The notes under the pieces: model-generated
The model's database searches: none
Told to the model about the DNA's origin: nothing
The model's input: the letters and a program-made list of their open reading frames with translations, nothing else
Shown here: positions 17,919 to 29,263 of the stretch, one piece after another
Position numbering within the stretch: the first letter of the stretch is position 1
How the letters are laid out: each line of letters begins with the position of its first letter
Origin: Rhodospirillaceae bacterium
Lineage (GTDB): Bacteria; Pseudomonadota; Alphaproteobacteria; SHVP01
DNA: 64,000 nt
Reading direction: 5' to 3'
NCBI GenBank assembly: GCA_002722055.1
Contig: PBKD01000011.1
Coordinates: 791 to 64,790 of the forward strand
Position numbers and translations under genes: made by a program

Positions 17919-18584
17919 TCAATATATATAATTTTCTTCTTTAGACCGTGTTCTTATAAACTTAGCAGGACTTCCATAATAGATTGAATTACCTCCTACT
18001 CTTTTATTAAGATATGAATTAGAACCAATTATAGAGTCATTATCTATTGAAGTATTATTTTTCACAACTGCTCCAATAGCAATGTAGGATCTATTGCCAA
18101 TAGTTACATTTCCGCCAGTTACAACACGCGGGCCTATAGAGGAAAAATCTAACATATTGTTATCATGTTCCAGACATGAATTAGTATTTAGAATACAAAA
18201 TTTACCAACCTTTGTTTTTGGACCTACAACAACATTTGGCATAATAATACAACCTTCTGCAATGGAAGCTCCAAGTGAAATAACTGCAGTTTTATGTATA
18301 AGTTTAGGAAATTTTATGGATCTATACTTGGAAATTATATCATTAAATACTCTTTCCCTTAGAAAGTTACTTCCAAATGAAAGTGCATAATCATAGTCTT
18401 CAATATTTTTTATTTCTTCCATTTGCTCTAATATTGGTACATTTAAAAAATTTTTCTTTCTTTTATCTTTGTCAATGAAATAACAAACTTCATACCCAGC
18501 TGAACATGCTACGTTATGAACACTTACAGCATTACCTCCTGCCCCTAAAATTATAAGTTTATTATTTTTCTTTTTTACATTCAT
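17919..18584 (-). CDS. NeuD/PglD-type sugar N/O-acetyltransferase (LegH-like role)
   Basis: IILGAGGNA, LIHKTAVIS, hexapeptide repeats, GSPAKFIR. Likely start is the ATG at 18584. Confidence 0.88.
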   Translation of the reverse strand: MNVKKKNNKLIILGAGGNAVSVHNVACSAGYEVCYFIDKDKRKKNFLNVPILEQMEEIKNIEDYDYALSFGSNFLRERVFNDIISKYRSIKFPKLIHKTAVISLGASIAEGCIIMPNVVVGPKTKVGKFCILNTNSCLEHDNNMLDFSSIGPRVVTGGNVTIGNRSYIAIGAVVKNNTSIDNDSIIGSNSYLNKRVGGNSIYYGSPAKFIRTRSKEENYIY

Positions 18585-18592
18585 TGTTATAA

Positions 18593-19750
18593 TTATACCG
18601 CAAGCTTGCAAGCTTCATATATTTTTTTGATGATCCATTCTTGTTTATTCTTTTCTAAATTAGTAGAACATGGCAATGCAATAAACTCTCTCGAAATTTT
18701 TTCTGTTACATTTGTTTTTGAATGTAAATATTTTTTGTAAGGTTTTTGGGTAGACAAGTTCTGCCAAAATAATTTAGCTTCAATATTATTTAAATTAAGA
18801 TATTGAATAATTTTATCAATGTTTGGGTGAACCCTTCTATTAACTTGAACGCCACTCATCCAAGCTGAGCTTATAGACCATTTTGGACATGGAATTGAAC
18901 TTAAGCCTGGCACATCAGTAATTGCTTGATTATAAGTTTCGAGTATACGCCTTTTATTATAAATAAATTCATCAACTCTATCTAGTTGAGCGCAGCCTAT
19001 GGCAGCCTCAACATTTGTCATCCTATGATTATATCCAATCACATCATGATTATATGATCCATTATATACTTTACCGGTACCACTTTTTTCTCTTATTAAA
19101 CCCATAAGACTTTTATCATTTCCAATTACAGCACCACCACCACCAGTAGTTATTATTTTATTTCCATTAAACGAGAAAGTAATTAACCCAGATATATTTT
19201 TAGCAATTTGATTATTATTATACTCCGCTCCAATAGAAGCAGCACCATCAATAATGACTTTAAGATTATACTTATTAGCAATTTGCTCCACTGCATCAAT
19301 ATTACAAACAATTCCTAATGTATTAACAGGCATAATACATGCTATTTTTTGTCCTGTTTTATTATGATATATATGATCCCCTTTCCAATTCGTTTCACAC
19401 CTCAATTGCTCATCAACTAAATTACAATCTAGTGTCCATGATTTAGATTCTATATCAATAAACCAAGGAGAAGCGCCTGACATACTTACAGAATTTGCCG
19501 TAGCAACAAATGAATACGCAGGAATAATAACTATATCACCATAGCCAATACCACATGATTTAAGGGCAAGGTGAAGAGCAGAGGTTCCTGAAGATGTTGA
19601 AACAGTATACTTTCCACCAGTTGATAGAGATAATTTTTTTTCAAACTCTTTTATATACGGACCAGAAGATGAAACATAACCACTAGAAATACAGTTTTGT
19701 AGTAATTTACTTTCATTTCCATCAAGGTTTGGCTCTGCTAAAGGAATCAT
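18593..19750 (-). CDS. legC: LegC-family DegT/DnrJ PLP aminotransferase
   Basis: IPL.EPNL.GNE....CI.SGYVSS.G.YI.EFE, FSFNGNKIITTGGGG (PLP Lys), GYNHRMTN..AAIG.AQL. Confidence 0.85.
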   Translation of the reverse strand: MIPLAEPNLDGNESKLLQNCISSGYVSSSGPYIKEFEKKLSLSTGGKYTVSTSSGTSALHLALKSCGIGYGDIVIIPAYSFVATANSVSMSGASPWFIDIESKSWTLDCNLVDEQLRCETNWKGDHIYHNKTGQKIACIMPVNTLGIVCNIDAVEQIANKYNLKVIIDGAASIGAEYNNNQIAKNISGLITFSFNGNKIITTGGGGAVIGNDKSLMGLIREKSGTGKVYNGSYNHDVIGYNHRMTNVEAAIGCAQLDRVDEFIYNKRRILETYNQAITDVPGLSSIPCPKWSISSAWMSGVQVNRRVHPNIDKIIQYLNLNNIEAKLFWQNLSTQKPYKKYLHSKTNVTEKISREFIALPCSTNLEKNKQEWIIKKIYEACKLAV

Positions 19751-19753
19751 TTT

Positions 19754-20497
19754 TTACCCTGTAGCAAATTTCATTTGAGATTTATCGTCTAAAATTGTCG
19801 AACTTTGCATGATTGATTGCGCAAAAGAGAAATCTTGTTCCGTGTTAATATCAACCGCTTCATATTCATTTATATATAATGGATTAAAGTTTTTATAATT
19901 TATTATAATACCTCTATCTCTAATAATTTTTTGAATATAAGTATTTCTAGAAAACATAATCAGTGGGTTAGAATAATATAAATTAGGAAGTTCTTGCCTT
20001 CTCTCGGGCTTTTTGATATCAGCAATAAACTCTTCTATATTGTCTCCATTTTTTTTAAACATAAAAAAGGGATGCTCTTTAACTTTAGTAACACTTAAGA
20101 CAGAGTCATACTTATCACCTATCATAGATATAGCTTTATTAATATGAATTTTAGTTCTCATAGGAGATGTTGGCTGTAAATAACCTACCAACTCTGGTAC
20201 CCAGTTATTTTCAATTTTTAACCAATTTAAAGTATGATTTACTACATCTATTGCTTTAGAAGTATTTCCTGATAAAAATTTAGGCCTCAAAAAAGGAACT
20301 TCTGCTCCTAATGTCCTAGCAATATTAGCAATTTCTATTGAGTCAGTAGAAACAATTACCCTATCAAGATTGCTATTTATTGCTGCATTTATGGTGTAAT
20401 AAATTAAGGGTTTGCCTTTGAGCAATCTTATATTTTTCTTTTTTACTTCAGAGGAACCAATCCTTGCAGGAATTATACCAAGAGTTTTGAAATTCAT
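19754..20497 (-). CDS. neuA: Acylneuraminate cytidylyltransferase (NeuA/LegF-type)
   Basis: IIPARIGS..V.KKNIR.L.GKPLI, VSTDS, FLRP..LS, LQPTSP.R, VDINT..DF. Confidence 0.9.
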   Translation of the reverse strand: MNFKTLGIIPARIGSSEVKKKNIRLLKGKPLIYYTINAAINSNLDRVIVSTDSIEIANIARTLGAEVPFLRPKFLSGNTSKAIDVVNHTLNWLKIENNWVPELVGYLQPTSPMRTKIHINKAISMIGDKYDSVLSVTKVKEHPFFMFKKNGDNIEEFIADIKKPERRQELPNLYYSNPLIMFSRNTYIQKIIRDRGIIINYKNFNPLYINEYEAVDINTEQDFSFAQSIMQSSTILDDKSQMKFATG

Positions 20498-21579
20498 TCT
20501 GCTGCCTTTTCTTGATTAGCACCAGGTTGTTTGATTGATACTGGAAGATAACATTTTCTACACATATCGATCTTATTATATTCTCCACTAGAATGTTTAT
20601 TTCTTATATCTTTATATTTTTCACCATTCCAGATGTTATATAGTTTTTCTTTTTTCCAATTTCCTACAATGACCTCATCTTTATCATCAACACAGCATAT
20701 CGTAACATTTCCATTATTTTTTAAAAACATTCTATGAAAAGGCTGAGCACAATGGAACCCAGGAACATATTCATACTCTCCACTTATCTCCTCATCTCTT
20801 TCTGTATACCAACTATAGCCAACCGCATCAACGATACCTTTCCACATAACCTGTAATGCCTTATACTGCTCCATCCATTTTGGGTCATCATACATAACCA
20901 TTGAAACTCTTACCTGGCAACTTGGTCTGATCTTATTTCTTAACTTTACAAATTTATAGAGGTTATCTATTGTTCTACCCAGAGTTGCTCCAACTCTTTG
21001 AGTTTCGTAGTCCTTAGGGTTTACTGCGTCAAATGAAATAAATAAGCCATCAATACCTGCTTTTAAAAGTGACTCAGAATTCTTTTCATTTAGCGCAGCT
21101 CCGTTAGAGTTCATAATTACATCTATTACACCTTTTTTCTTTGCATATTCTATTTGCCAAGCAATATCTTTATGCATTAATGGCTCACCTAAATAATTAA
21201 GTTTAATTGATCTTAAGTTATATCTTGTGCCTTCATCAATAATTTTCATAAATTCGTCTTTTGTGATAAAACCGTTCTCATTGAACTTACCTTGCTCTAC
21301 TAATTGTGTTCTTGGACACATTGGGCACTTAAGATTACAATAAGTTGTAGTTTCAATATCTAAATGAAGAGGAAAATCAATATCTGTAAAATTCTTAGGA
21401 ATATTTGTCCAATCAGATCTATATTTATGATACTCATCAGGTTTTAAGTTTAACCATTTATCATCAAGAGTAATTTCACTATAAGTTGCGTTAGGATCAA
21501 ACTCCCATGGAATTGATTCATCAATATCTCTAATTGGGGAATTAAATTTTTTAATTTTATCTAAATTTTCATTCTTCAT
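20494..21579 (-). CDS. Radical SAM protein with SPASM/Twitch domain
   Basis: CNLKCPMC (CxxxCxxC), LNYLGEPL, NSNG, C-terminal CAQPF...G.V..CC.D...GN...IWNG...R...C.KC. Confidence 0.92.
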   Translation of the reverse strand: MKNENLDKIKKFNSPIRDIDESIPWEFDPNATYSEITLDDKWLNLKPDEYHKYRSDWTNIPKNFTDIDFPLHLDIETTTYCNLKCPMCPRTQLVEQGKFNENGFITKDEFMKIIDEGTRYNLRSIKLNYLGEPLMHKDIAWQIEYAKKKGVIDVIMNSNGAALNEKNSESLLKAGIDGLFISFDAVNPKDYETQRVGATLGRTIDNLYKFVKLRNKIRPSCQVRVSMVMYDDPKWMEQYKALQVMWKGIVDAVGYSWYTERDEEISGEYEYVPGFHCAQPFHRMFLKNNGNVTICCVDDKDEVIVGNWKKEKLYNIWNGEKYKDIRNKHSSGEYNKIDMCRKCYLPVSIKQPGANQEKAAE

Positions 21580-21585
21580 TTTATA

Positions 21586-22680
21586 TCACCATATATTTTG
21601 AATTGGTTCACCTGATTTATAATTTTTATTTGCTTTTTTACCAATTAAATCCCAAATTTTCATCGGTGAAACACCGTTTCCTGGTCTTAAAGCAATAAGA
21701 TTATCTCTTGTAAATTCAGTTCCTTTTATTATTTCTTTTCGGGCAGTTAAACTTTTTCTAGCAACAAACTTATTACACTCTTCAGATTTTAAAGATTGCT
21801 TTATTTCACTCCCCAAAGCTACCTCAACTTCTCTTATTGATTTTATCAGATGATTTAATTCATTTGGCTCTATTGAAGCTTTGTGATCAGGCCCAGGTAA
21901 ATTTTTATCTAATGTAAAATGTTTTTCAATAACTGTTGCACCTAAAGCAGCTGAAGCAATTGTTACTACACTACCTTCACTATGGTCAGAATAACCAATA
22001 GGTACATTAAATTTTCTAGATATTTCACTCATACTATTTAAATTTATAGAATCTAATGGAGCAGGGTATTGTGATGTGCAATGTAATAAAGTTATATACT
22101 TACTTAGTAATGAATAAAAAGAGTCAGTGTATAAATATTTTTTTATTTCACTCTTAGAGCTAATATCTCTATTTTTTTCTAAATAAGTAAATACGATTAA
22201 CCCCAAAGCATCTTCAATTTCATTCATATTTGACATGCCTGTAGATACAATCAAAGGTAAATTACTTCTTGCTGATTTAACTAGCAAAGGACCATTTGTA
22301 ATCTCCCCTGAAGGTATTTTGATTCTCTTTATTCCAAATGAAACTAATTCATCTAAACTTTCTTCATCAAATGGTGTCGCAAGAAATTCAATATTCTTTT
22401 TATTACATCTATCAATTATTTTCTTTATATCACTTCTATTGAGTTCTAATTTTTTTAACATTTCAAATTGAGACTCTAAAATATTTGTATTATTTTTTTG
22501 ATATTCTGCTTTTGGAGTATCTTTTATTAATAACTTTTCAGTTTTATAGTATTGAAATTTAATTATATCTGCACCTGCATTAGCTGCCGTATCAATTAAC
22601 TGAAATGCTCTGTCAATATCTCCATTGTGATTGACACCAGCTTCTGCAATAAATATTATTTTATTTTTATTAATCATCAT
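21586..22680 (-). CDS. neuB: Nonulosonic acid synthase NeuB/LegI (canonical)
   Basis: IAEAGVNHNG, KFQ, TPFD, KIPSGE, STGM, LLHCTSQYP, GYSDH, EKHFTLD, C-terminal AFP-like domain with ARKS. Confidence 0.93.
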   Translation of the reverse strand: MMINKNKIIFIAEAGVNHNGDIDRAFQLIDTAANAGADIIKFQYYKTEKLLIKDTPKAEYQKNNTNILESQFEMLKKLELNRSDIKKIIDRCNKKNIEFLATPFDEESLDELVSFGIKRIKIPSGEITNGPLLVKSARSNLPLIVSTGMSNMNEIEDALGLIVFTYLEKNRDISSKSEIKKYLYTDSFYSLLSKYITLLHCTSQYPAPLDSINLNSMSEISRKFNVPIGYSDHSEGSVVTIASAALGATVIEKHFTLDKNLPGPDHKASIEPNELNHLIKSIREVEVALGSEIKQSLKSEECNKFVARKSLTARKEIIKGTEFTRDNLIALRPGNGVSPMKIWDLIGKKANKNYKSGEPIQNIW

Positions 22681-22682
22681 TT

Positions 22683-23486
22683 TTAAAAAAAGAAATTATT
22701 GAATTCTCTATTTGCTTTTTCTAGATCAACTTTTTGTCCAATATCACACCAATAATCTCGAATTTTATAAACAGATATATTTTTATTATCATTTTTTATA
22801 AGGTCAATTACCTCTGTCATATCAATAAATGTATTCTTATTTATATAATTTAAAACTTCTGGTTCTATTACATAAATACCTGCATTAACAAGATATTTTT
22901 TATGAGGTTTTTCAGTCAATGTTCTTAAATAATTTTTTTCTTCTTCCACGACTCCATAGGGTATTTGGATACTCTGCTCAATTGCACATATTGTAGCTAA
23001 TGCTTTTGATTCTTTGTGTCTCTTAAGTAATTCATCAAAATCTATGTCCGTCAATATATCAGCATTCATTATTATAAGCGGTTTTTTAGGTTTCTTATTC
23101 AACAATGATAATGAGCCTGCAGTACCTAAAGCACAATTTTCTCTTAAGTATTTTATATTAGCGCCAAACTTAAGACCATCCTGAAAATGATCTTCAATCA
23201 TTTCACCTAAATAATTTATGGAAAGCCAGAAATTAGTAAACCCCCTACTAATAAACCTTTTAATTGTAGTCTCTAATAATGGTCTTGGCCCTACTTCTAG
23301 CAATGGTTTCGGACGTAGATTTGTTAATGGTGCTAATCTTTTACCATTACCACCGGCCATTAGTACTACAGCTTCACAATTATGTTTAGAAGTATTTATT
23401 TTGTTAGAAAAAGTACCAAATAACTGTTGATTTTCAGTTAAATTATTATGGTTAACTACTGTATCTAAACCTAATATTTCACCCAT
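22683..23486 (-). CDS. Sugar-phosphate nucleotidyltransferase (PtmE-like), no CBS domains
   Basis: VLMAGG.GKRL.PLT...PKPLL, LGTAGSL, MNADILT, NAGIYV, YWCDIG. Confidence 0.85.
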   Translation of the reverse strand: MGEILGLDTVVNHNNLTENQQLFGTFSNKINTSKHNCEAVVLMAGGNGKRLAPLTNLRPKPLLEVGPRPLLETTIKRFISRGFTNFWLSINYLGEMIEDHFQDGLKFGANIKYLRENCALGTAGSLSLLNKKPKKPLIIMNADILTDIDFDELLKRHKESKALATICAIEQSIQIPYGVVEEEKNYLRTLTEKPHKKYLVNAGIYVIEPEVLNYINKNTFIDMTEVIDLIKNDNKNISVYKIRDYWCDIGQKVDLEKANREFNNFFF

Positions 23487-23623: not shown

Positions 23624-24622
23624 TTATATAGAATAATTACCAAATCTATAGAAACTTAGGTTTAGTGGATCATCAAACCATTCAATTGTTTTTTTCAATC
23701 CATTTATAAAGCCACCCTTACCTGAATACTTTGGCTCCCAACCCAAAAGCATCTTTGATCTACTGTTATCTGACCAAAGTCTATCAACTTCACTCTCATC
23801 AGGCCTCTTTCTTAACTCTTCAATATTAATAGAAGTTTGGAAACCCATTAAATCACTAATCAAATTAGCAGTTTCACCTATTGAAATTTCAAAGTTATTA
23901 CCAAGGTTAAGAATTTCTCCCTCCGCTATACCAACTTTTGAAGCTAATATTAAACCATTAACTGTATCTTCAACATAGCTAAAATCTCTTGTCGTATGCG
24001 TGGATCCTAATTTAATTAAATTTCTACTTTCTTTTATCTGCGTAATAATTGTGGGTATTACTGCTCTTGTAGATTGTCTAGGTCCATATGTATTGAAAGG
24101 TCTAATTATTGTTATCGGTAAACTAAAGCTATGGTAGAATGATAAACTCAATTGATCCGCTGCAGTCTTACTAGCCGCATAAGGTGATTGAGCATTCAAC
24201 CTATGATCTTCACTCATTGGAACATATTTAGCAGAACCATAAACTTCGCTTGTTGATGTTATTATAGTTTTTTGTATATTTAAATCCTTAGCCGCCATTA
24301 ATATATTTAAAGTTCCCATCACATTTGTTTCTATAAATGTTCTTGGAGCTTTATAAGAATAAGGAATACTCATCATAGCAGCTAAATGAATTATATTAGT
24401 GCAGTCTGAAGCTATATCTTTCATTAATTCTGCATCTCTAATATCTCCACTTATTATTTCAATAGAATCAAATATTTTCTTATCAATATTATCTAACCAA
24501 CCATTAGATCCAAAAGAATTATAATGAACCATAGCCCGGACATCTTTACCTGACCTGACAAGCTTTTCAACCAAATGAGAACCAATAAAACCGTCTGCCC
24601 CTGTTACTAAATATTTTTCCAT
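23624..24622 (-). CDS. legB: NAD-dependent nucleotide-sugar 4,6-dehydratase (LegB type)
   Basis: VTGADGFIGSHL, HYNSFGSNGWLD, HLAA..SIPYSY.AP, STSEVYG, YAASK, PFNTYGPRQS.RAVIPTII. Confidence 0.9.
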   Translation of the reverse strand: MEKYLVTGADGFIGSHLVEKLVRSGKDVRAMVHYNSFGSNGWLDNIDKKIFDSIEIISGDIRDAELMKDIASDCTNIIHLAAMMSIPYSYKAPRTFIETNVMGTLNILMAAKDLNIQKTIITSTSEVYGSAKYVPMSEDHRLNAQSPYAASKTAADQLSLSFYHSFSLPITIIRPFNTYGPRQSTRAVIPTIITQIKESRNLIKLGSTHTTRDFSYVEDTVNGLILASKVGIAEGEILNLGNNFEISIGETANLISDLMGFQTSINIEELRKRPDESEVDRLWSDNSRSKMLLGWEPKYSGKGGFINGLKKTIEWFDDPLNLSFYRFGNYSI

Positions 24623-24637
24623 TTATATCTCACTTTT

Positions 24638-25387
24638 CTAAGCAGCTAAATTTGTTTTTAACTTTATTTCTTTGGGTTTTTTTTGATTAACATTTGAATT
24701 TATTTTTTTTAATTTTGGATTTTTATCTAAAAATTTTATTACATCATTCAAACTAAATATTTCACCGCTTTTATATAAATTTTTAAAAATAATTTTCATT
24801 AATTCAAAGTCAGGTTTTTCATCAACAGTTAATCTTAAACCTGAATTACTATAATTTTTATTATGAAATAGTTCTCCTAATTTAAATTTATTTGTTCTTA
24901 AAAAATATTGCGGCCAAAACTCAGTCTCAGAACTATCTTTAATATCGCAGGCTTTATCTAGTGATGATCTATTCACTGTCATTGTGAATGTTCCAAAAGG
25001 TATATTTTTTGACATTGAAAAATCAAATTTTCCGTTGATATGATAATCTATTAATTCATCCATAAACAAATTATCAATTAGTGGGTTATCAGCTGTACAG
25101 CTTGAAATTACATCAATGTTGTAAAAATCAGCTGCATCCCTAAGTCTTAGCATAACATCATCTGGATGACCCCTAAAACAATCTAAGCCTTCTTTTAATG
25201 CAAATTTTTCTAAATCATCGTCTTGATCAATTGTTGAGGTGCACAATACAATGCGGTGACATTTTTTTGAATGTCTTAATCTATCTACCAAATGACCTAG
25301 CATTGGTCTACCACAAATAGGGAGTAGGACTTTCCTCTTCAACCTTTGAGACTTTAATCTGGCGGTAATGAAAGATGCTATTTTCAT
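24638..25387 (-). CDS. SpsF/KdsB-like ulosonic acid cytidylyltransferase (second copy)
   Basis: TARL.S.RL..KVL..I.G.PML, DD.L, FRG...DV..R...AA, TADNPLID, RLTVD...DFEL. Confidence 0.85.
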   Translation of the reverse strand: MKIASFITARLKSQRLKRKVLLPICGRPMLGHLVDRLRHSKKCHRIVLCTSTIDQDDDLEKFALKEGLDCFRGHPDDVMLRLRDAADFYNIDVISSCTADNPLIDNLFMDELIDYHINGKFDFSMSKNIPFGTFTMTVNRSSLDKACDIKDSSETEFWPQYFLRTNKFKLGELFHNKNYSNSGLRLTVDEKPDFELMKIIFKNLYKSGEIFSLNDVIKFLDKNPKLKKINSNVNQKKPKEIKLKTNLAA

Positions 25388-26385
25388 TGAATATCATCCA
25401 TTGTAACCAAGTTATGAAGTGAAATATTCTTATTAAGAACTTTTCCTTCTATCATTGATAATAAATCAGGAGACAAACCAAGCTTTGGACCCCTCAAAGC
25501 AATTAAATCATTATTATTTATTTTTTTACCTTTAACTAAGTCATGTTTAGCAACTAAACTTTTCCTTGAATATTTTCTATAATTTTCTTCATCTTCATTA
25601 AATCTTCTTGGAAATCCAGAACCCCTAGAAAGATCTATAGTATGAATCATATCAACAAATTCTTTGAATTCTGAAGGATTAAGAGCAGACTCATGATCTA
25701 AACCTTTGAAACTTCTATCATGTGTTAAATGTTTTTCTATTACATTTATTCCCATACCATAAACTGCAGCTGGCAACCAAAATGCCTCCATTTTATTTGC
25801 ATCACAGTGATCTTGATACCCAACAGTTAAACCATACAAATTAGAAATTTTTTTCATATACTCTAAATTTAAACTTATTGCTGATGTTGGAAATAATTGA
25901 TAACCATACATTAACCATATCGGGGAATTTGAGGTAAATCTTATAATTTTTATAGCAGAATCAATCTCACTTATAGTTGAAGCCCCTATACTTAAATCTA
26001 TTCTTTTTTTTGTATTAGCTACAGCTGATAGAATTTTTGGATTAGAAATGTCCGAAGCATGAATTTTATAAGCATCAACACCTAAACTTTCACAAAATTT
26101 TATACTTGCTTCATCATATACACAGGCAATTATGGAAAGTTTTGGAAAATTACCCTTTGTATATTCATATAAGTCTAACCACTGTTCTTTATTTAACTCA
26201 ATATCTTTTAATTTTTTAAAATCCGGACTATGTTTCACCATAATATCTTCTGCCGTCCAAATTTGAAATTGTATTGCATTAGCATTAGCTATACCAGCTG
26301 AGTCAATTATTTTTTTTGCTAAGGATACATCTCCTTCGTGAGAACAAGCCATTTCAGCTATTATATATGGTTTATTTTTATTCAT
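25384..26385 (-). CDS. Second, divergent NeuB-family protein
   Basis: IIAEMACSHEG, QFQ, KIHASD, GYQDH, IEKH.T.DR...G.DH..AL.P, AFP-like C-terminus with SRKS. Confidence 0.85.
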   Translation of the reverse strand: MNKNKPYIIAEMACSHEGDVSLAKKIIDSAGIANANAIQFQIWTAEDIMVKHSPDFKKLKDIELNKEQWLDLYEYTKGNFPKLSIIACVYDEASIKFCESLGVDAYKIHASDISNPKILSAVANTKKRIDLSIGASTISEIDSAIKIIRFTSNSPIWLMYGYQLFPTSAISLNLEYMKKISNLYGLTVGYQDHCDANKMEAFWLPAAVYGMGINVIEKHLTHDRSFKGLDHESALNPSEFKEFVDMIHTIDLSRGSGFPRRFNEDEENYRKYSRKSLVAKHDLVKGKKINNNDLIALRGPKLGLSPDLLSMIEGKVLNKNISLHNLVTMDDIQ

Positions 26386-26472: not shown

Positions 26473-27651
26473 TTAACCTGAAATAAAATTTGATTTTTGG
26501 TTAAATGATTTAATTAGCAATTCACTTGTATTAATACTTAATATTTTTTTAACAATTTTCTTGGATGCACCAGGAGTGCCATAAGGGTTAATAGTATTCG
26601 CAACTTTTTTCTGGAAGCTAGGTGATAGCCCAATATGTAAACCCTTAGTGATATCTGTATATTCTTCCGAACAATTAATGATACTATTTGCTTTCAATCT
26701 TCCATTTTGTCTAGAACCAATATTTAAAGTTGGAGTACCCAATGATGGTGCTTCAATTATTCCGCTCGAAGAATTACCAACTAAAATATCTGCAATTTTA
26801 ATTAATGATAAATATAAATTTTGCCCAAATGAATCTCTTAAAATTAATTTATTTTCTTTTTTACATTTTTCTAAATATTTATTTATTGTTAAACCCATAG
26901 AGTCAGCATTTGATTTACTAACTAATACCGTTTTATCTTCAATTTCATCAAAAGCTTTGAATATATTTTTTAAAACTTCTATAGGATTTTTATTTCCAAG
27001 AGTAGCAGGATGATAGCTTAATAAAATAATTTTTTTCTTCAATGAAATATTTAACTTATTTTCTAATTCTGATCTTGAGAACATAGGAAGAGAATTTATA
27101 TTGTCCAACCCTGGAGCACCATAATTATATACATTTTTTGGATTTTCTCCCATTTGAATAACTCTTTGTTTATAATTTTCAGCGCAAGTAAAATGTAAAT
27201 GAGACATTTTAGTAATTGCATGCCTTATAGACTCATCAATCGAACCTTCTGATGACTCTCCACCGTGAATATGTGCAATTGGAATATTTAAAATCATTGC
27301 GGCCTGAGCTACTCCAAGCGCTTCATATCTATCACCAAGAATAACTAATATATCTGGTTTCAACCTATTTAATTCCTTAGAATATAATTTAATTCCATTA
27401 CCCAAATTATTTGCAATATCTATCTTTCTATCGTTTTTTAAATTTAGTTTAATTTTTGAGTTAATATTAAATCCATCATTCTCTATTTCCTTGAATGTCA
27501 TACCGAAATTTTTCGATAAGTGAGAACCAGAAACCATAATTTGTAAATTTAATTCGTTTCTATCATTTATTTCTATCATAATTGGCTTTAAAAGCCCGTA
27601 ATCAGCTCTTGTTCCTGTAAAAAAACAAATATTTTTTTTATTTTTTAACAA
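26473..27651 (-). CDS. neuC: Hydrolysing UDP/GDP-GlcNAc 2-epimerase (NeuC/LegG)
   Basis: TGTRADYG, SGSHL, GDRYE, HIHGGE.SEGSIDESIRHAITKMSH, GNSSSGIIEAP, IGSRQ.GR. Confidence 0.93.
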   Translation of the reverse strand: MLKNKKNICFFTGTRADYGLLKPIMIEINDRNELNLQIMVSGSHLSKNFGMTFKEIENDGFNINSKIKLNLKNDRKIDIANNLGNGIKLYSKELNRLKPDILVILGDRYEALGVAQAAMILNIPIAHIHGGESSEGSIDESIRHAITKMSHLHFTCAENYKQRVIQMGENPKNVYNYGAPGLDNINSLPMFSRSELENKLNISLKKKIILLSYHPATLGNKNPIEVLKNIFKAFDEIEDKTVLVSKSNADSMGLTINKYLEKCKKENKLILRDSFGQNLYLSLIKIADILVGNSSSGIIEAPSLGTPTLNIGSRQNGRLKANSIINCSEEYTDITKGLHIGLSPSFQKKVANTINPYGTPGASKKIVKKILSINTSELLIKSFNQKSNFISG

Positions 27652-27655
27652 CTAA

Positions 27656-29263
27656 TTACTCTTCCTTTAAAATATTTAAGGCATCTTCACATGTAATTTT
27701 AGTGAATGATTCATAGCTGCTGTGGGGACAACAGTTATATACCTCGGGCACAGATAATCCAAATAATTTTGAAACAGCCATCATTTGAAATTTTGTGATA
27801 TCATCAAAGAATTTTGCATCATTTATTAACCTTCTATTCGCTTCATTCTTCGTATCGTTACAATCAGATTGCCCAGTAACTCCGCCAAAAAAATAGAGCT
27901 CTTTGCTAGATTCATCTTTTTTCTCAAAACCTGAATTACCTCCATCAGCACCAAAAATAAATATTCTTTTTGGAGCGGCTAAACAAATAACAGGTAATAA
28001 TACAGATAGAGTATTTCCAGGAAGAAAATGTAATGGTGTAGCAATAGACGGAACAAAAAGATTAGAATTTATAAATAATAATTTTTCGTCAAACTCTTTG
28101 ACGATTGACTCCATTAAACCATATTTAGAATTTAAACCCAGAAAAGAGTATTGAGATGAGATTAGAAAATTTTTATTTTTTGATTTTAAAAACTGCTTAT
28201 AAGCTTCCCATCTGTAATTTAAATCTGATGGGTTAGTTACTGTTAAAATATCAATATTTTTCCCCTCTGGTAAAATATTATTTTCTAACTCATTAAATTT
28301 ATTCAAACTTGCATAACATAAATTAAACTTATTAAACTCTTCTATATTTTTTTTGAATTCTTTTATTGACGGTCCATATAACATCACTGCAACGTCTCGC
28401 CCTTTAACAATTTCTCTCATTTTTAATATTCTATTATATGAAGATGGTAAATATGTGTCAGGTCCGTCTGTATATAGATCTTTAGGGGAAATATTATCAG
28501 AAATAATTGAATAAAGTTCTCCCGCTTTTCTTTTATTACCTAAAATATGATATATCCAGGCAGCAAGTATTTGAATAGTATGTGATTCTATACTGCTTGC
28601 ATTTTTAGATATATCAATACAATACTGCAAAGCAGTTGTTAACACTTGTCTAGATTCTTTATTTTTACCTGAATATTTTAAGCATAATCCCCAATATATA
28701 TAGTAGACAGGCTCAACTGTTTTAGTTTTTTTTGAAATAAATTCATAAACCTCTGAAGCTTTATAAAAAAAACCTGCAAGTCTATATGTATCTGCAATTT
28801 CTGTTAAAAATTTTACATCATTTTTCTTATTTTTTTTTACTAGAGAAAAACTTTTGTCTATTGAAAATTTAGCATCTTTATAATCTTTATATGATTGACT
28901 TTGATTCATTCCTAATTTAAGCCAATACTCTGGATCTTCTGGTCTTTCCTTAATTAACTTCTTAAAAGTATTAATAGCATCATCATGCTTTAAAGTACTT
29001 TGCTGGATATTAGCAATTATTGAATAAGCCTCTATACTTGGCAACCTTTTAACTTGATTCTCAAGAATAGTTCTTGCCTCATCAAATTTTTCTAAATGAG
29101 TTAAAACCTTAGCCTTATGGAAAAGAGCTGATTCATTTAGTTTGTCAAAATCTAACAACTTATCATATAATTTAAGCGCAAGGTTATATTTTTGATCAAT
29201 AAAGGCACTATGAGCTTTCTGTAAATATTTTTCATTCAAAGACTGATGAGGTATAAATTTCAT
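27656..29263 (-). CDS. TPR protein with C-terminal Maf/DUF115- or sialyltransferase-like domain (putative nonulosonate transferase)
   Basis: The N-terminal half has TPR-like repeats. The C-terminal half shows KGRDVAVMLYGPSI ... LN.F ... D ... GNT ... KRIFIFGADG ... YFF ... VYNC..HS....F, resembling the GxGPS/GxD pattern of Maf and CstII-like folds. Confidence 0.55.
   Translation of the reverse strand: MKFIPHQSLNEKYLQKAHSAFIDQKYNLALKLYDKLLDFDKLNESALFHKAKVLTHLEKFDEARTILENQVKRLPSIEAYSIIANIQQSTLKHDDAINTFKKLIKERPEDPEYWLKLGMNQSQSYKDYKDAKFSIDKSFSLVKKNKKNDVKFLTEIADTYRLAGFFYKASEVYEFISKKTKTVEPVYYIYWGLCLKYSGKNKESRQVLTTALQYCIDISKNASSIESHTIQILAAWIYHILGNKRKAGELYSIISDNISPKDLYTDGPDTYLPSSYNRILKMREIVKGRDVAVMLYGPSIKEFKKNIEEFNKFNLCYASLNKFNELENNILPEGKNIDILTVTNPSDLNYRWEAYKQFLKSKNKNFLISSQYSFLGLNSKYGLMESIVKEFDEKLLFINSNLFVPSIATPLHFLPGNTLSVLLPVICLAAPKRIFIFGADGGNSGFEKKDESSKELYFFGGVTGQSDCNDTKNEANRRLINDAKFFDDITKFQMMAVSKLFGLSVPEVYNCCPHSSYESFTKITCEDALNILKEE

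Follow-up and report, generated by a model that had tools for sequence, protein, structure and literature searches.

A conserved NeuB paralogue with an apparently rebuilt PEP pocket, coupled to an SpsF-like cytidylyltransferase

Introduction

Nonulosonic acids (sialic, legionaminic and pseudaminic) are found on flagella, capsules, LPS and S-layers, and influence motility, recognition by phages and interactions with the immune system; their biosynthesis is taught as the work of one synthase and one cytidylyltransferase. The canonical synthases, among them N. meningitidis NeuB (1XUZ/1XUU), C. jejuni LegI and PseI (8H2C) and Leptospira NeuB (6NCS), share a TIM barrel and a SAF (AFP-like) domain. 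We take the metal site of NeuB to consist of the ligands H215 and H236 together with E25, E234 and D247. Q55 and D/E134 presumably keep the open-chain sugar beside the metal, G131 of the N. meningitidis enzyme presumably adjoins PEP, and the SAF-domain Arg314 is assumed here to complete the active site of the partner subunit in the NeuB dimer. Lys53 is also taken to be a PEP-contact residue, on the carboxylate. Positions 110, 129, 131, 132, 182 and 184 of NeuB are described as PEP-contact positions (PMC7371886), and T110, K129, N184 and S213 have been named as PEP-contact residues (PMC6795526).

A described arrangement close to the one reported here is that of B. subtilis SpsE (1VLI) and SpsF, where a NeuB-family gene is likewise followed by an SpsF-type gene in a legionaminic-acid pathway, and where genetic evidence puts spsF one step downstream of Leg synthesis (PMC7439481). 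In our alignment SpsE has the canonical residue at every PEP-contact position, and it is the only NeuB of its pathway. KDO8P and DAH7P synthases, the other TIM-barrel alpha-carboxyketose synthases that use PEP, are distant fold relatives with metal-assisted aldol-like chemistry (Foldseek E about 1e-11 to 1e-12 to the protein studied here), but they are without a SAF domain, have another PEP site, show no sequence-level family membership, and give no precedent for the loss of PEP use.

Here we analyse a cluster in which two NeuB-family genes lie close together. In contrast to B. subtilis, a canonical synthase (NeuB1) is present in addition, and it is the SpsF-coupled paralogue (NeuB2) that carries the altered pocket.

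Results

The nonulosonate cluster and the NeuB2 gene

The window is a 64,000-nucleotide stretch of contig PBKD01000011.1 from a Rhodospirillaceae bacterium, and all features given below lie on its minus strand. NeuB2 is a non-canonical NeuB-family protein of 333 residues (25384..26385) with a TIM barrel and a SAF domain, identified from its ORF and Pfam matches. Directly upstream is a NeuC/LegG-type hydrolysing 2-epimerase (26473..27651; NCBIfam TIGR03568, 461 bits). Downstream, the TGA stop of NeuB2 and the ATG start of an SpsF-like cytidylyltransferase share an ATGA overlap (25384..25387), which confirms the coupling read in the initial annotation; the partner (24638..25387) matches CTP_transf_3 over its N-terminal 150 residues (Pfam PF02348, 82 bits). 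There follow a LegB-type 4,6-dehydratase (23624..24622; TIGR04180, 453 bits, just under the cut-off of 475), a PtmE-like sugar-1-phosphate nucleotidyltransferase (22683..23486; Pfam NTP_transferase) and, 2.7 kb from NeuB2, the canonical legionaminate/neuraminate-type, LegI-like synthase NeuB1 (21586..22680; NCBIfam NeuB_NnaB, 454 bits), which has the canonical residue at every PEP and metal position. The PtmE-like protein is without CBS domains; its orthologues in related loci have them and are ~355 residues long. The cluster continues with a LegF/PseF-type CMP-nonulosonate synthetase, its second cytidylyltransferase (19754..20497; Pfam CTP_transf_3; NCBIfam PseF 126 bits, below cut-off), a LegC-type aminotransferase (18593..19750; TIGR04181, 361 bits) and a NeuD/LegH-type N-acetyltransferase (17919..18611; TIGR03570, 174 bits, above cut-off). 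Between NeuB1 and LegF is a radical SAM/SPASM protein (20494..21579; Pfam Radical_SAM and SPASM), for which a SugarBase preprint on C10 ulosonic acids in Magnetospirillum offers a side lead. A tie between those sugars and NeuB2 was considered and rejected, as no evidence for it was found.

NeuB2 matches the Pfam profiles NeuB PF03102 (150.9 bits, cut-off 22.1) and SAF PF08666 (28 bits, cut-off 21) and falls below both NCBIfam equivalogs, TIGR03569 (210.3 against a cut-off of 399.65) and TIGR03586 (161.3 against 340.25). On NeuB_NnaB it reaches about half of the cut-off with its 210.3 bits, compared with 453.8 bits, above cut-off, for NeuB1, to which it is 29% identical. The AF2 model (pLDDT 91.5, pTM 0.83) superposes on the solved NeuB structures 2wqp and 1xuu with a Foldseek TMq of 0.81-0.82, the value for N. 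meningitidis NeuB being 0.82, so the predicted fold is confidently NeuB-like. The closest solved sequence is Leptospira NeuB 6NCS (E 2.8e-33).

The metal site is kept and the PEP contacts are replaced

Reading the sequence again bears out the ORF, its coordinates and the motifs by which NeuB2 had been set apart from NeuB1 (AEMACSH for AEAGVNH, QFQ for KFQ, ACVY for ATPF, KIHASD for KIPSGE and LMYGYQ for LLHCTS), and the DH and RKS motifs are retained. That annotation took both PEP- and Mn-binding residues to be substituted, and only the first half stands. In an HMMER alignment of NeuB2 to N. meningitidis NeuB (1xuu), several PEP-contact positions are replaced, since the alignment gives K53Q, T110C, S132A, H181Y, C182G, N184Q, Y186F and S213Q. 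Both Mn ligands, however, are retained: the His lost from LLHCTS is H181, not H215 or H236, so a loss of metal ligands is rejected.

Gln39 takes the position of the PEP-carboxylate Lys53 (26269..26271, the codon given in the initial annotation), Cys88 that of Thr110 (26122..26124) and His109 that of Gly131 (26059..26061), with S132 and E134 becoming A110 and D112. The motif Y160-G161-Y162-Q163-L164-F165 (25891..25908) stands in place of H-C-T-N/S-x-Y, with H181, C182, N184 and Y186 becoming Y160 (codon 25906-25908, as annotated), G161, Q163 and F165. Ser213 is Q191, next to a retained metal ligand in Q191-D192-H193 (25807..25815), where H193 of the YQDH motif is H215. The second ligand, H236, is H219 of E217-K218-H219 (25729..25737), which also keeps E234 as E217; E25 (E11), Q55, K129 and D247 are unchanged, as is the swapped SAF-domain Arg314 (R298; 25492..25494), an Arg in 57/64 NeuB2-type proteins and in 96% of the full-length wider family. 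The PEP-contact set of NeuB2 thus reads Q39, C88, A110, G161/Q163 and Q191, and only K129 (K107) and S154 (S132) are retained from it. NeuB2 shares its genomic setting, a nonulosonate cluster, with the canonical enzymes and further differs from them by N29S and by a loop, the one bearing Asn74, that is ~10 residues shorter.

NeuB2 stands apart among the seven NeuB paralogues of its genome, and its substitution pattern lies far outside what chance would give. The six others are canonical at all of the substituted positions. In 55 co-resident canonical NeuBs, conservation reaches 98% or more at K53, T/S110, C182, Y186 and S213.

The substitutions mark a selected clade

The substitutions that define the clade do not vary among 119 homologues with 52-87% identity to NeuB2, from Acidobacteriota, Chloroflexota, Desulfobacterota, Planctomycetota, Omnitrophota, CPR bacteria, Proteobacteria and others, as the homologue alignment proposed earlier was meant to reveal. 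Position 53 is Gln in 119/119 of them and position 131 is His in 118/119. S132A is the exception and does not define the clade, with Ser at that position in 96/119. The NeuB2-type clade is monophyletic with a support of 0.996. Values of dN/dS are 0.09 and 0.12 for NeuB2, 0.19 for NeuB1 and 0.035 for the radical SAM gene; purifying selection on NeuB2 is strong. The intact ORF, the low dN/dS and the invariance of the substitutions across phyla support the earlier view that the gene is maintained, and with this invariance NeuB2 defines a clade.

The same data bear on the idea that NeuB2 is an incipient pseudogene, a duplicate in decay with substitutions found in this genome alone, an outcome under which the initial annotation would have been withdrawn. 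Its sole support is the low score on the NeuB equivalog model. Against it stand the intact ORF with a Shine-Dalgarno-like AAGGG upstream, the cross-phylum invariance, a dN/dS of about 0.1, and near-identical intact copies that recur in marine metagenomes with sampling dates between 2014 and 2025, where coverage is too thin for pN/pS. The invariance across the clade and the dN/dS lead us to reject decay, to which we give a negligible chance.

A wider family with glycine and glutamine at positions 182 and 184

To place NeuB2 among its relatives, 1.84 billion representatives were searched; 596 lay at or below E 1e-30, and among the best 150 of the 50%-identity representatives, 135 share the G182/Q184 motif. 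NeuB2 fits the signature of this family at G161, Q163, Q39/C88 and S15, the small residue in place of N29. G182 and Q184, the family hallmark, are 100% conserved, and H215, H236, E25, E234 and D247 are 97-100% conserved. This conservation argues against two further suggestions of the initial annotation, that NeuB2 is a pseudo-enzyme and that its metal site is changed. The altered donor pocket that it proposed holds up, and makes different chemistry plausible.

Across the wider family, the residues at positions 53 and 110 change together as a charge pair: either Lys53 goes with Asp/Glu110, or position 53 is not Lys (n=127; 67 with Lys and acid, 52 with neither, 8 exceptions). His occupies position 131 in 86/127. 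S132 (Ala in NeuB2), K129 and S154 are largely retained, and positions 110, 131, 154 and 213 differ between subclades, variation that is unexpected for a pocket binding a universal co-substrate. The newly conserved His131, Gln184, Tyr269 and Arg270 could form an alternative PEP site. A PDB search with one family member returned only canonical NeuBs and no entry of the G182/Q184 family, with 3G8R more distant still, and full-text literature searches found no published characterisation of the family, whose members are routinely annotated as N-acetylneuraminate/legionaminate synthase. NeuB2 is a member of a branch of the sialic-acid-synthase family that is large, strongly conserved and uncharacterised, and whose PEP pocket appears, from these alignments, to be rebuilt.

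Coupling to an SpsF-like enzyme and co-occurrence with canonical NeuB

An SpsF-like gene lies directly downstream of the NeuB2-type gene in about 54/61 loci, with a 4-nt overlap in 42/61; its homologues are named SpsF (JGI) or 'glycosyltransferase family protein' (NCBI). The two proteins are fused in 30/135 family representatives. One triple fusion, canonical-NeuB::NeuB2-like::SpsF, and one NeuB2::SpsF::degenerate-NeuB fusion were also found. Fused in many organisms and translationally coupled here, NeuB2 and the SpsF-like cytidylyltransferase probably form one functional unit, which the initial annotation overlooked.

Unlike the canonical enzymes, NeuB2-type proteins are not the sole NeuB of their genome: a canonical NeuB was also present in 12/12 genomes searched, and NeuB2 as a sole synthase is rejected on that ground. 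A canonical NeuB lies near the NeuB2-type gene in 43/49 long loci. The commonest cluster holds a single aldose-supply route (LegB, LegC, NeuD, NeuC, PtmE), two NeuBs, and the SpsF-like enzyme as its only cytidylyltransferase. In 3 genomes this enzyme is the sole CTP_transf_3 protein besides a KdsB-like one; the same does not hold in others or here, and a role for it as always the sole CMP-synthetase is rejected. In several marine islands that carry the fusion, a canonical NeuB is also present, accompanied by a cytidylyltransferase of its own.

Strict co-occurrence with canonical NeuB and the two multi-NeuB fusions would suit a mainly structural part for NeuB2, which would then catalyse little or nothing itself. 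It could be a heterodimer subunit that gives its SAF-domain Arg to NeuB1, as the initial annotation also suggested, or an adaptor that binds nonulosonate and brings the SpsF-like enzyme to the synthase, giving a synthase-activase complex that channels its substrate. The retained SAF domain and Arg314, and the 3 genomes in which the SpsF-like protein is the sole candidate CMP-nonulosonate synthetase, point the same way. A pure scaffold, however, would not need the metal His pair, E25, E234 and D247 at such conservation, nor the invariant G182/Q184; NeuB2 also has a dN/dS below that of the canonical synthase. The B. subtilis pathway has SpsE and SpsF but no NeuB2-type protein, so a partner of that kind is not a general requirement of SpsF-type enzymes, and the B. 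subtilis SpsF works genetically in its absence. We consider a chiefly structural role quite improbable.

A second alternative is that NeuB2 is a PEP-dependent ulosonic-acid synthase of the ordinary kind whose donor pocket is unusually divergent, making a second sugar (for example a C4-epimeric or otherwise different nonulosonate) that the SpsF-like enzyme turns into CMP-X in parallel to NeuB1 and LegF. Coupling or fusion to a cytidylyltransferase of the KdsB/NeuA superfamily is classic synthase-to-activase logic, and the metal ligands, E25, K129, D/E134, D247 and R314 are all retained. The window and several marine islands have two cytidylyltransferases and two NeuB types, and a genome with seven NeuB paralogues evidently makes many sugars. 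Such a synthase would nevertheless have lost the canonical residue at five or more PEP-contact positions, none of which varies among the characterised and the co-resident canonical enzymes, with Lys53 missing or neutralised by Asp/Glu110, and its NCBIfam score is half of the equivalog cut-off. It would also always be accompanied by a canonical NeuB, and in the commonest cluster one aldose route and one cytidylyltransferase would have to serve two synthases. We hold this reading to be somewhat unlikely.

Discussion

Starting from the observed conservation, coupling, co-occurrence and pocket remodelling, we infer a substrate and a reaction for NeuB2. Our tentative preference, held with a little less than even confidence, is that NeuB2 is a functional, selected enzyme with its metal site kept and its PEP sub-pocket rebuilt, working as a unit with the SpsF-like enzyme in the same pathway as NeuB1 and carrying out a PEP-independent step on a nonulosonate. 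NeuB1 would condense PEP with 2,4-diacetamido-2,4,6-trideoxy-mannose to give legionaminic acid. The metal site of NeuB2 would then take the free nonulosonate or its open-chain form, and PEP-independent chemistry at C3/C4, for instance a retro-aldol/aldol or enolisation-type epimerisation, may follow. The coupled SpsF-like enzyme would remove the NeuB2 product irreversibly as a CMP-sugar, and LegF would in parallel activate unmodified legionaminic acid.

Several observations count against a PEP-independent step. The largely retained K129, S132 and S154 and the newly conserved residues could still make up a PEP site. The synthase-then-activase order and the fusions would be just as expected if NeuB2 were an ordinary synthase for a second sugar, the separate canonical NeuB and cytidylyltransferase of the marine islands fit two parallel sugars, and the B. 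subtilis pathway manages without a NeuB2-type protein. For the G182/Q184 branch as a whole, the corresponding proposal is that its members are PEP-independent, metal-dependent enzymes acting on a finished nonulosonic acid (for example by C4/C3 epimerisation of legionaminic or pseudaminic acid), with the reaction pulled by an epimer-specific SpsF-type enzyme. In this general form we judge the proposal unlikely.

Whatever its reaction, the G182/Q184 family is very large, spans phyla, sits in nonulosonate pathways and is strongly selected, and it lacks the PEP-binding signature that all characterised members share. If its activity differs from that of the canonical synthases, many surface-sugar annotations and pathway predictions are wrong in the same way, and an unrecognised enzymatic step or stereoisomer is common in environmental bacteria. 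If the PEP-independent reading is true, NeuB2 and its relatives would represent a reaction class new to the sialic-acid-synthase fold, and a step in the diversification of bacterial surface sugars that is widespread yet overlooked.

Results

The low-GC window (about 30%) carries a minus-strand legionaminic acid (Leg) cluster at 17.9–29.3 kb that encodes, in transcription order, a TPR protein, NeuC/LegG, NeuB2, an SpsF-like cytidylyltransferase, LegB, a PtmE-like nucleotidyltransferase, NeuB1/LegI, a radical-SAM/SPASM protein, a LegF/PseF-type cytidylyltransferase, LegC and NeuD/LegH. NeuB1 (21586–22680, minus) scores 454 bits against the NCBIfam NeuB equivalog, above the cut-off of 399.65; NeuB2 (25384–26385, minus) is 29% identical to it, matches the Pfam NeuB and SAF models and reaches only 210 bits. 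NeuB2 is preceded by an AT-rich 87-nt spacer with a Shine-Dalgarno-like AAGGG, and its stop overlaps the start of the SpsF-like gene (24638–25387, minus) as ATGA. This coupling had been described in the initial annotation, whose quoted NeuB2 and NeuB1 motifs and codon coordinates are likewise correct.

Other genes of the cluster have features of their own. At 267 aa, the PtmE-like protein (22683–23486, minus) is without the two N-terminal CBS domains present in the orthologues (~355 aa) from most related clusters. The radical-SAM/SPASM gene (20494–21579, minus), between NeuB1 and LegF, is the cluster's most conserved (91% amino acid identity to related locus L006, dN/dS 0.035) and also adjoins LegF-type genes in distant phyla (L001, L028, L041, L047); we know of no Leg-pathway step that requires it. 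A preprint describes unexplained C10 ulosonic acids in Magnetospirillum, and a tie between these and the radical-SAM/SPASM gene is speculation. The TPR protein (27656–29263, minus; 535 aa) has N-terminal repeats, and its C-terminal 266 aa gave no match in a Pfam search. It may be a candidate glycosyltransferase using the CMP-sugar, because a 963-aa TPR protein adjoining the same cluster in Thiovibrio has an MptE-like (Maf-type) domain.

Canonical enzymes have a free Lys53, itself a PEP-binding residue, and a Thr110 that donates a hydrogen bond to the PEP carboxylate. A HMMER alignment to N. meningitidis NeuB (1xuu) shows that NeuB2 retains E25 (E11 in NeuB2), Q55 (Q41), K129 (K107), S154 (S132), H215 (H193), E234 (E217), H236 (H219), D247 (D230) and R314 (R298), and carries N29S, K53Q, T110C, G131H, S132A, E134D, H181Y, C182G, T183Y, N184Q, Y186F and S213Q. 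Positions 110, 129, 131, 132, 182 and 184 surround PEP (PMC7371886), and T110, K129, N184 and S213 are among the key residues (PMC6795526). By this mapping the PEP side of the pocket appears heavily substituted. The Mn-binding residues, which had been thought substituted too, are not: H215 and H236 are kept, and the His lost from LLHCTS is H181, which is no metal ligand. The AlphaFold2 model of NeuB2 is confident (pLDDT 91.5, pTM 0.83) and superposes on N. meningitidis NeuB across both domains (TMq 0.82).

Among 5.8 billion clustered proteins, 793 matched NeuB2; the best 120 are 52–87% identical to it and come from many phyla. S15, Q39, C88, D112, Y160, G161, Q163, F165 and Q191 (NeuB2 numbering) are invariant in 119 of 119 homologues and H109 is present in 118; S132A (N. 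meningitidis numbering) is not clade-defining, as 96 of the 119 have Ser. In 67 loci of species-representative genomes, 64 NeuB2-type copies and 55 co-resident canonical NeuBs split cleanly: the canonical copies keep K53, T/S110, C182, Y186 and S213 at a conservation of 98% or more, and 62–64 of the NeuB2-type ones have other residues there. Together with the monophyly of the NeuB2 clade (support 0.996), the invariance establishes that the substitutions define a conserved clade, and dN/dS against the closest orthologues (0.09 and 0.12 for NeuB2, 0.19 for NeuB1, 0.13–0.14 for NeuC) bears out the earlier suggestion that the gene is maintained. Near-identical NeuB2 copies recur in marine metagenomes of 2014 to 2025. 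Decay is ruled out, with hardly any doubt left, by the cross-phylum invariance and these dN/dS values.

When 1.84 billion representatives (50% identity) were searched exhaustively with phmmer, 596 proteins reached an E-value of 1e-30 or lower; among the best 150 of these, 135 have C182G and N184Q (the G182/Q184 family), 11 are canonical and 4 partial or other. E25, H30, H215, E234, H236, D247 and R314 are 96–100% conserved across the family, and N29 is a small residue in all but one of the 127 members that have a residue aligned at both position 53 and position 110. These two positions covary as a charge pair (67 Lys53 with Asp/Glu110, 52 non-Lys with non-acid, 8 exceptions; Fisher p 6e-26, sequences counted as independent with no phylogeny correction), which suggests that Lys53 is either lost or neutralised; NeuB2 itself falls in the Gln53/Cys110/Gln213 subclade. 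Positions 110, 131, 154 and 213 vary between subclades, unlike the PEP pocket of canonical enzymes, which is identical in Neu, Leg and Pse synthases (PMC7371886), and this argues for a pocket that probably no longer binds the universal co-substrate in the canonical way. PDB searches found no solved structure of a family member, and a full-text literature search no publication on the family.

The functional unit is NeuB2 plus the SpsF-like cytidylyltransferase. In about 54 of 61 evaluable loci the gene immediately after the NeuB2-type one encodes an SpsF-like CTP_transf_3 protein, 42 of them with exactly the 4-nt overlap. Several apparent exceptions are artefacts of the ORF-start rule used for the loci; the true ones are Peribacteria, with the order NeuB2, SDR, cytidylyltransferase (L037:11021–12584), one locus with SpsF elsewhere in it, one genome with SpsF 1.2 Mb away, and one fusion. 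Among the G182/Q184 representatives are 30 NeuB2-like::SpsF-like fusions of 575–615 aa, and one representative, P0127 (L072:2696–5587, 963 aa), is a natural triple fusion of canonical NeuB, NeuB2-like and SpsF-like parts. The genes after it encode a PseH-like GNAT and a PseG-like Glyco_tran_28_C::FrhB fusion, a pseudaminic-type context, so the module also serves pseudaminic-type pathways. An Omnitrophica protein (L052:9926–12598, 890 aa) joins NeuB2, SpsF (this part containing an assembly gap of Ns) and a third, degenerate NeuB-like domain. The partner is annotated as SpsF by the sources; B. subtilis spsF genetically follows Leg synthesis, Leg accumulating in the mother cell without transfer (PMC7439481).

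The third domain of the Omnitrophica fusion has neither the E234/H236 metal motif nor a SAF domain, and weak NeuB matches of 30–46 bits in several genomes may be of the same type. Oxidoreductases sometimes join the module, as in a Verrucomicrobia-like MAG (L060:11005–12933), where a GFO/IDH/MocA oxidoreductase is joined to the SpsF-like domain and an SDR comes next, and in the Peribacteria SDR insertion; their presence may point to redox or epimerisation of the sugar. On a TARA marine scaffold (L076:11818–14576), three ATP-citrate-lyase/succinyl-CoA-ligase-like genes (ATP-grasp_2+Citrate_bind, CoA_binding+Ligase_CoA and a short Citrate_synt) come directly after a NeuB2-like::SpsF fusion, all within a nonulosonate island, and could supply an unusual acyl group.

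A canonical NeuB is nearby in 43 of 49 long loci and present in all 12 searched genomes with a NeuB2-type gene; a LegF/PseF-type enzyme occurs in only 11 of the 49. The commonest cluster (NeuB2, SpsF, NeuB1, NeuC, NeuD, PtmE, LegB, LegC) thus combines a single aldose-supply route with two NeuBs and a single cytidylyltransferase. Three genomes have no CTP_transf_3 protein other than the SpsF-like one and a KdsB-like one; others, the source genome included, hold more. NeuB2-type genes are rare and patchy (3 of 401 alphaproteobacterial genomes, 171 of which have some NeuB; none found by protein search in four same-family genomes), and therefore the module is probably horizontally mobile.

The source genome (2.16 Mb, 99% complete) has at least eight CTP_transf_3 cytidylyltransferases and seven NeuB-family paralogues, on its contigs C11 (22589–23389, 26405–27100), C8 (19380–20048, 27577–28257, 51778–52494) and C7 (129649–130347, 131481–132200), six of them canonical at all PEP and metal positions. 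For a streamlined marine genome, this is an unusually heavy commitment to sugars of the nonulosonic-acid type.

Discussion

Our data show NeuB2 to be a selected, predicted metal-binding NeuB-fold protein with an apparently rebuilt donor pocket, tied physically and translationally to an SpsF-type cytidylyltransferase, with a canonical synthase present in every genome checked. The pocket changes, obligatory co-occurrence, triple fusion and one-aldose/one-activase minimal cluster lead us to place first, tentatively, a NeuB2 that would act in line with NeuB1 and feed the SpsF-like activase, probably working on free nonulosonate without PEP. By inference, it would catalyse an equilibrium reaction, such as a retro-aldol/aldol epimerisation, pulled by the irreversible activase, which would explain the tight coupling. 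Somewhat less probably, NeuB2 would be an ordinary synthase that uses PEP despite its divergent pocket and makes a second sugar, a reading that fits both synthase-to-activase logic and the islands with two complete modules. The initial annotation, whose observations stood apart from the Mn ligands and whose interpretation is supported in part, had proposed, as its second idea, a heterodimer partner; co-occurrence, fusions and the retained Arg314 would suit such a role, mainly as partner or scaffold, but the perfectly conserved metal site and low dN/dS speak against it and make it improbable.

Within the sialic-acid-synthase fold, the NeuB2 group is a sub-family that is very widespread and uncharacterised; its chemistry probably departs from the textbook one, and the group is of real interest for glycobiology and enzymology.
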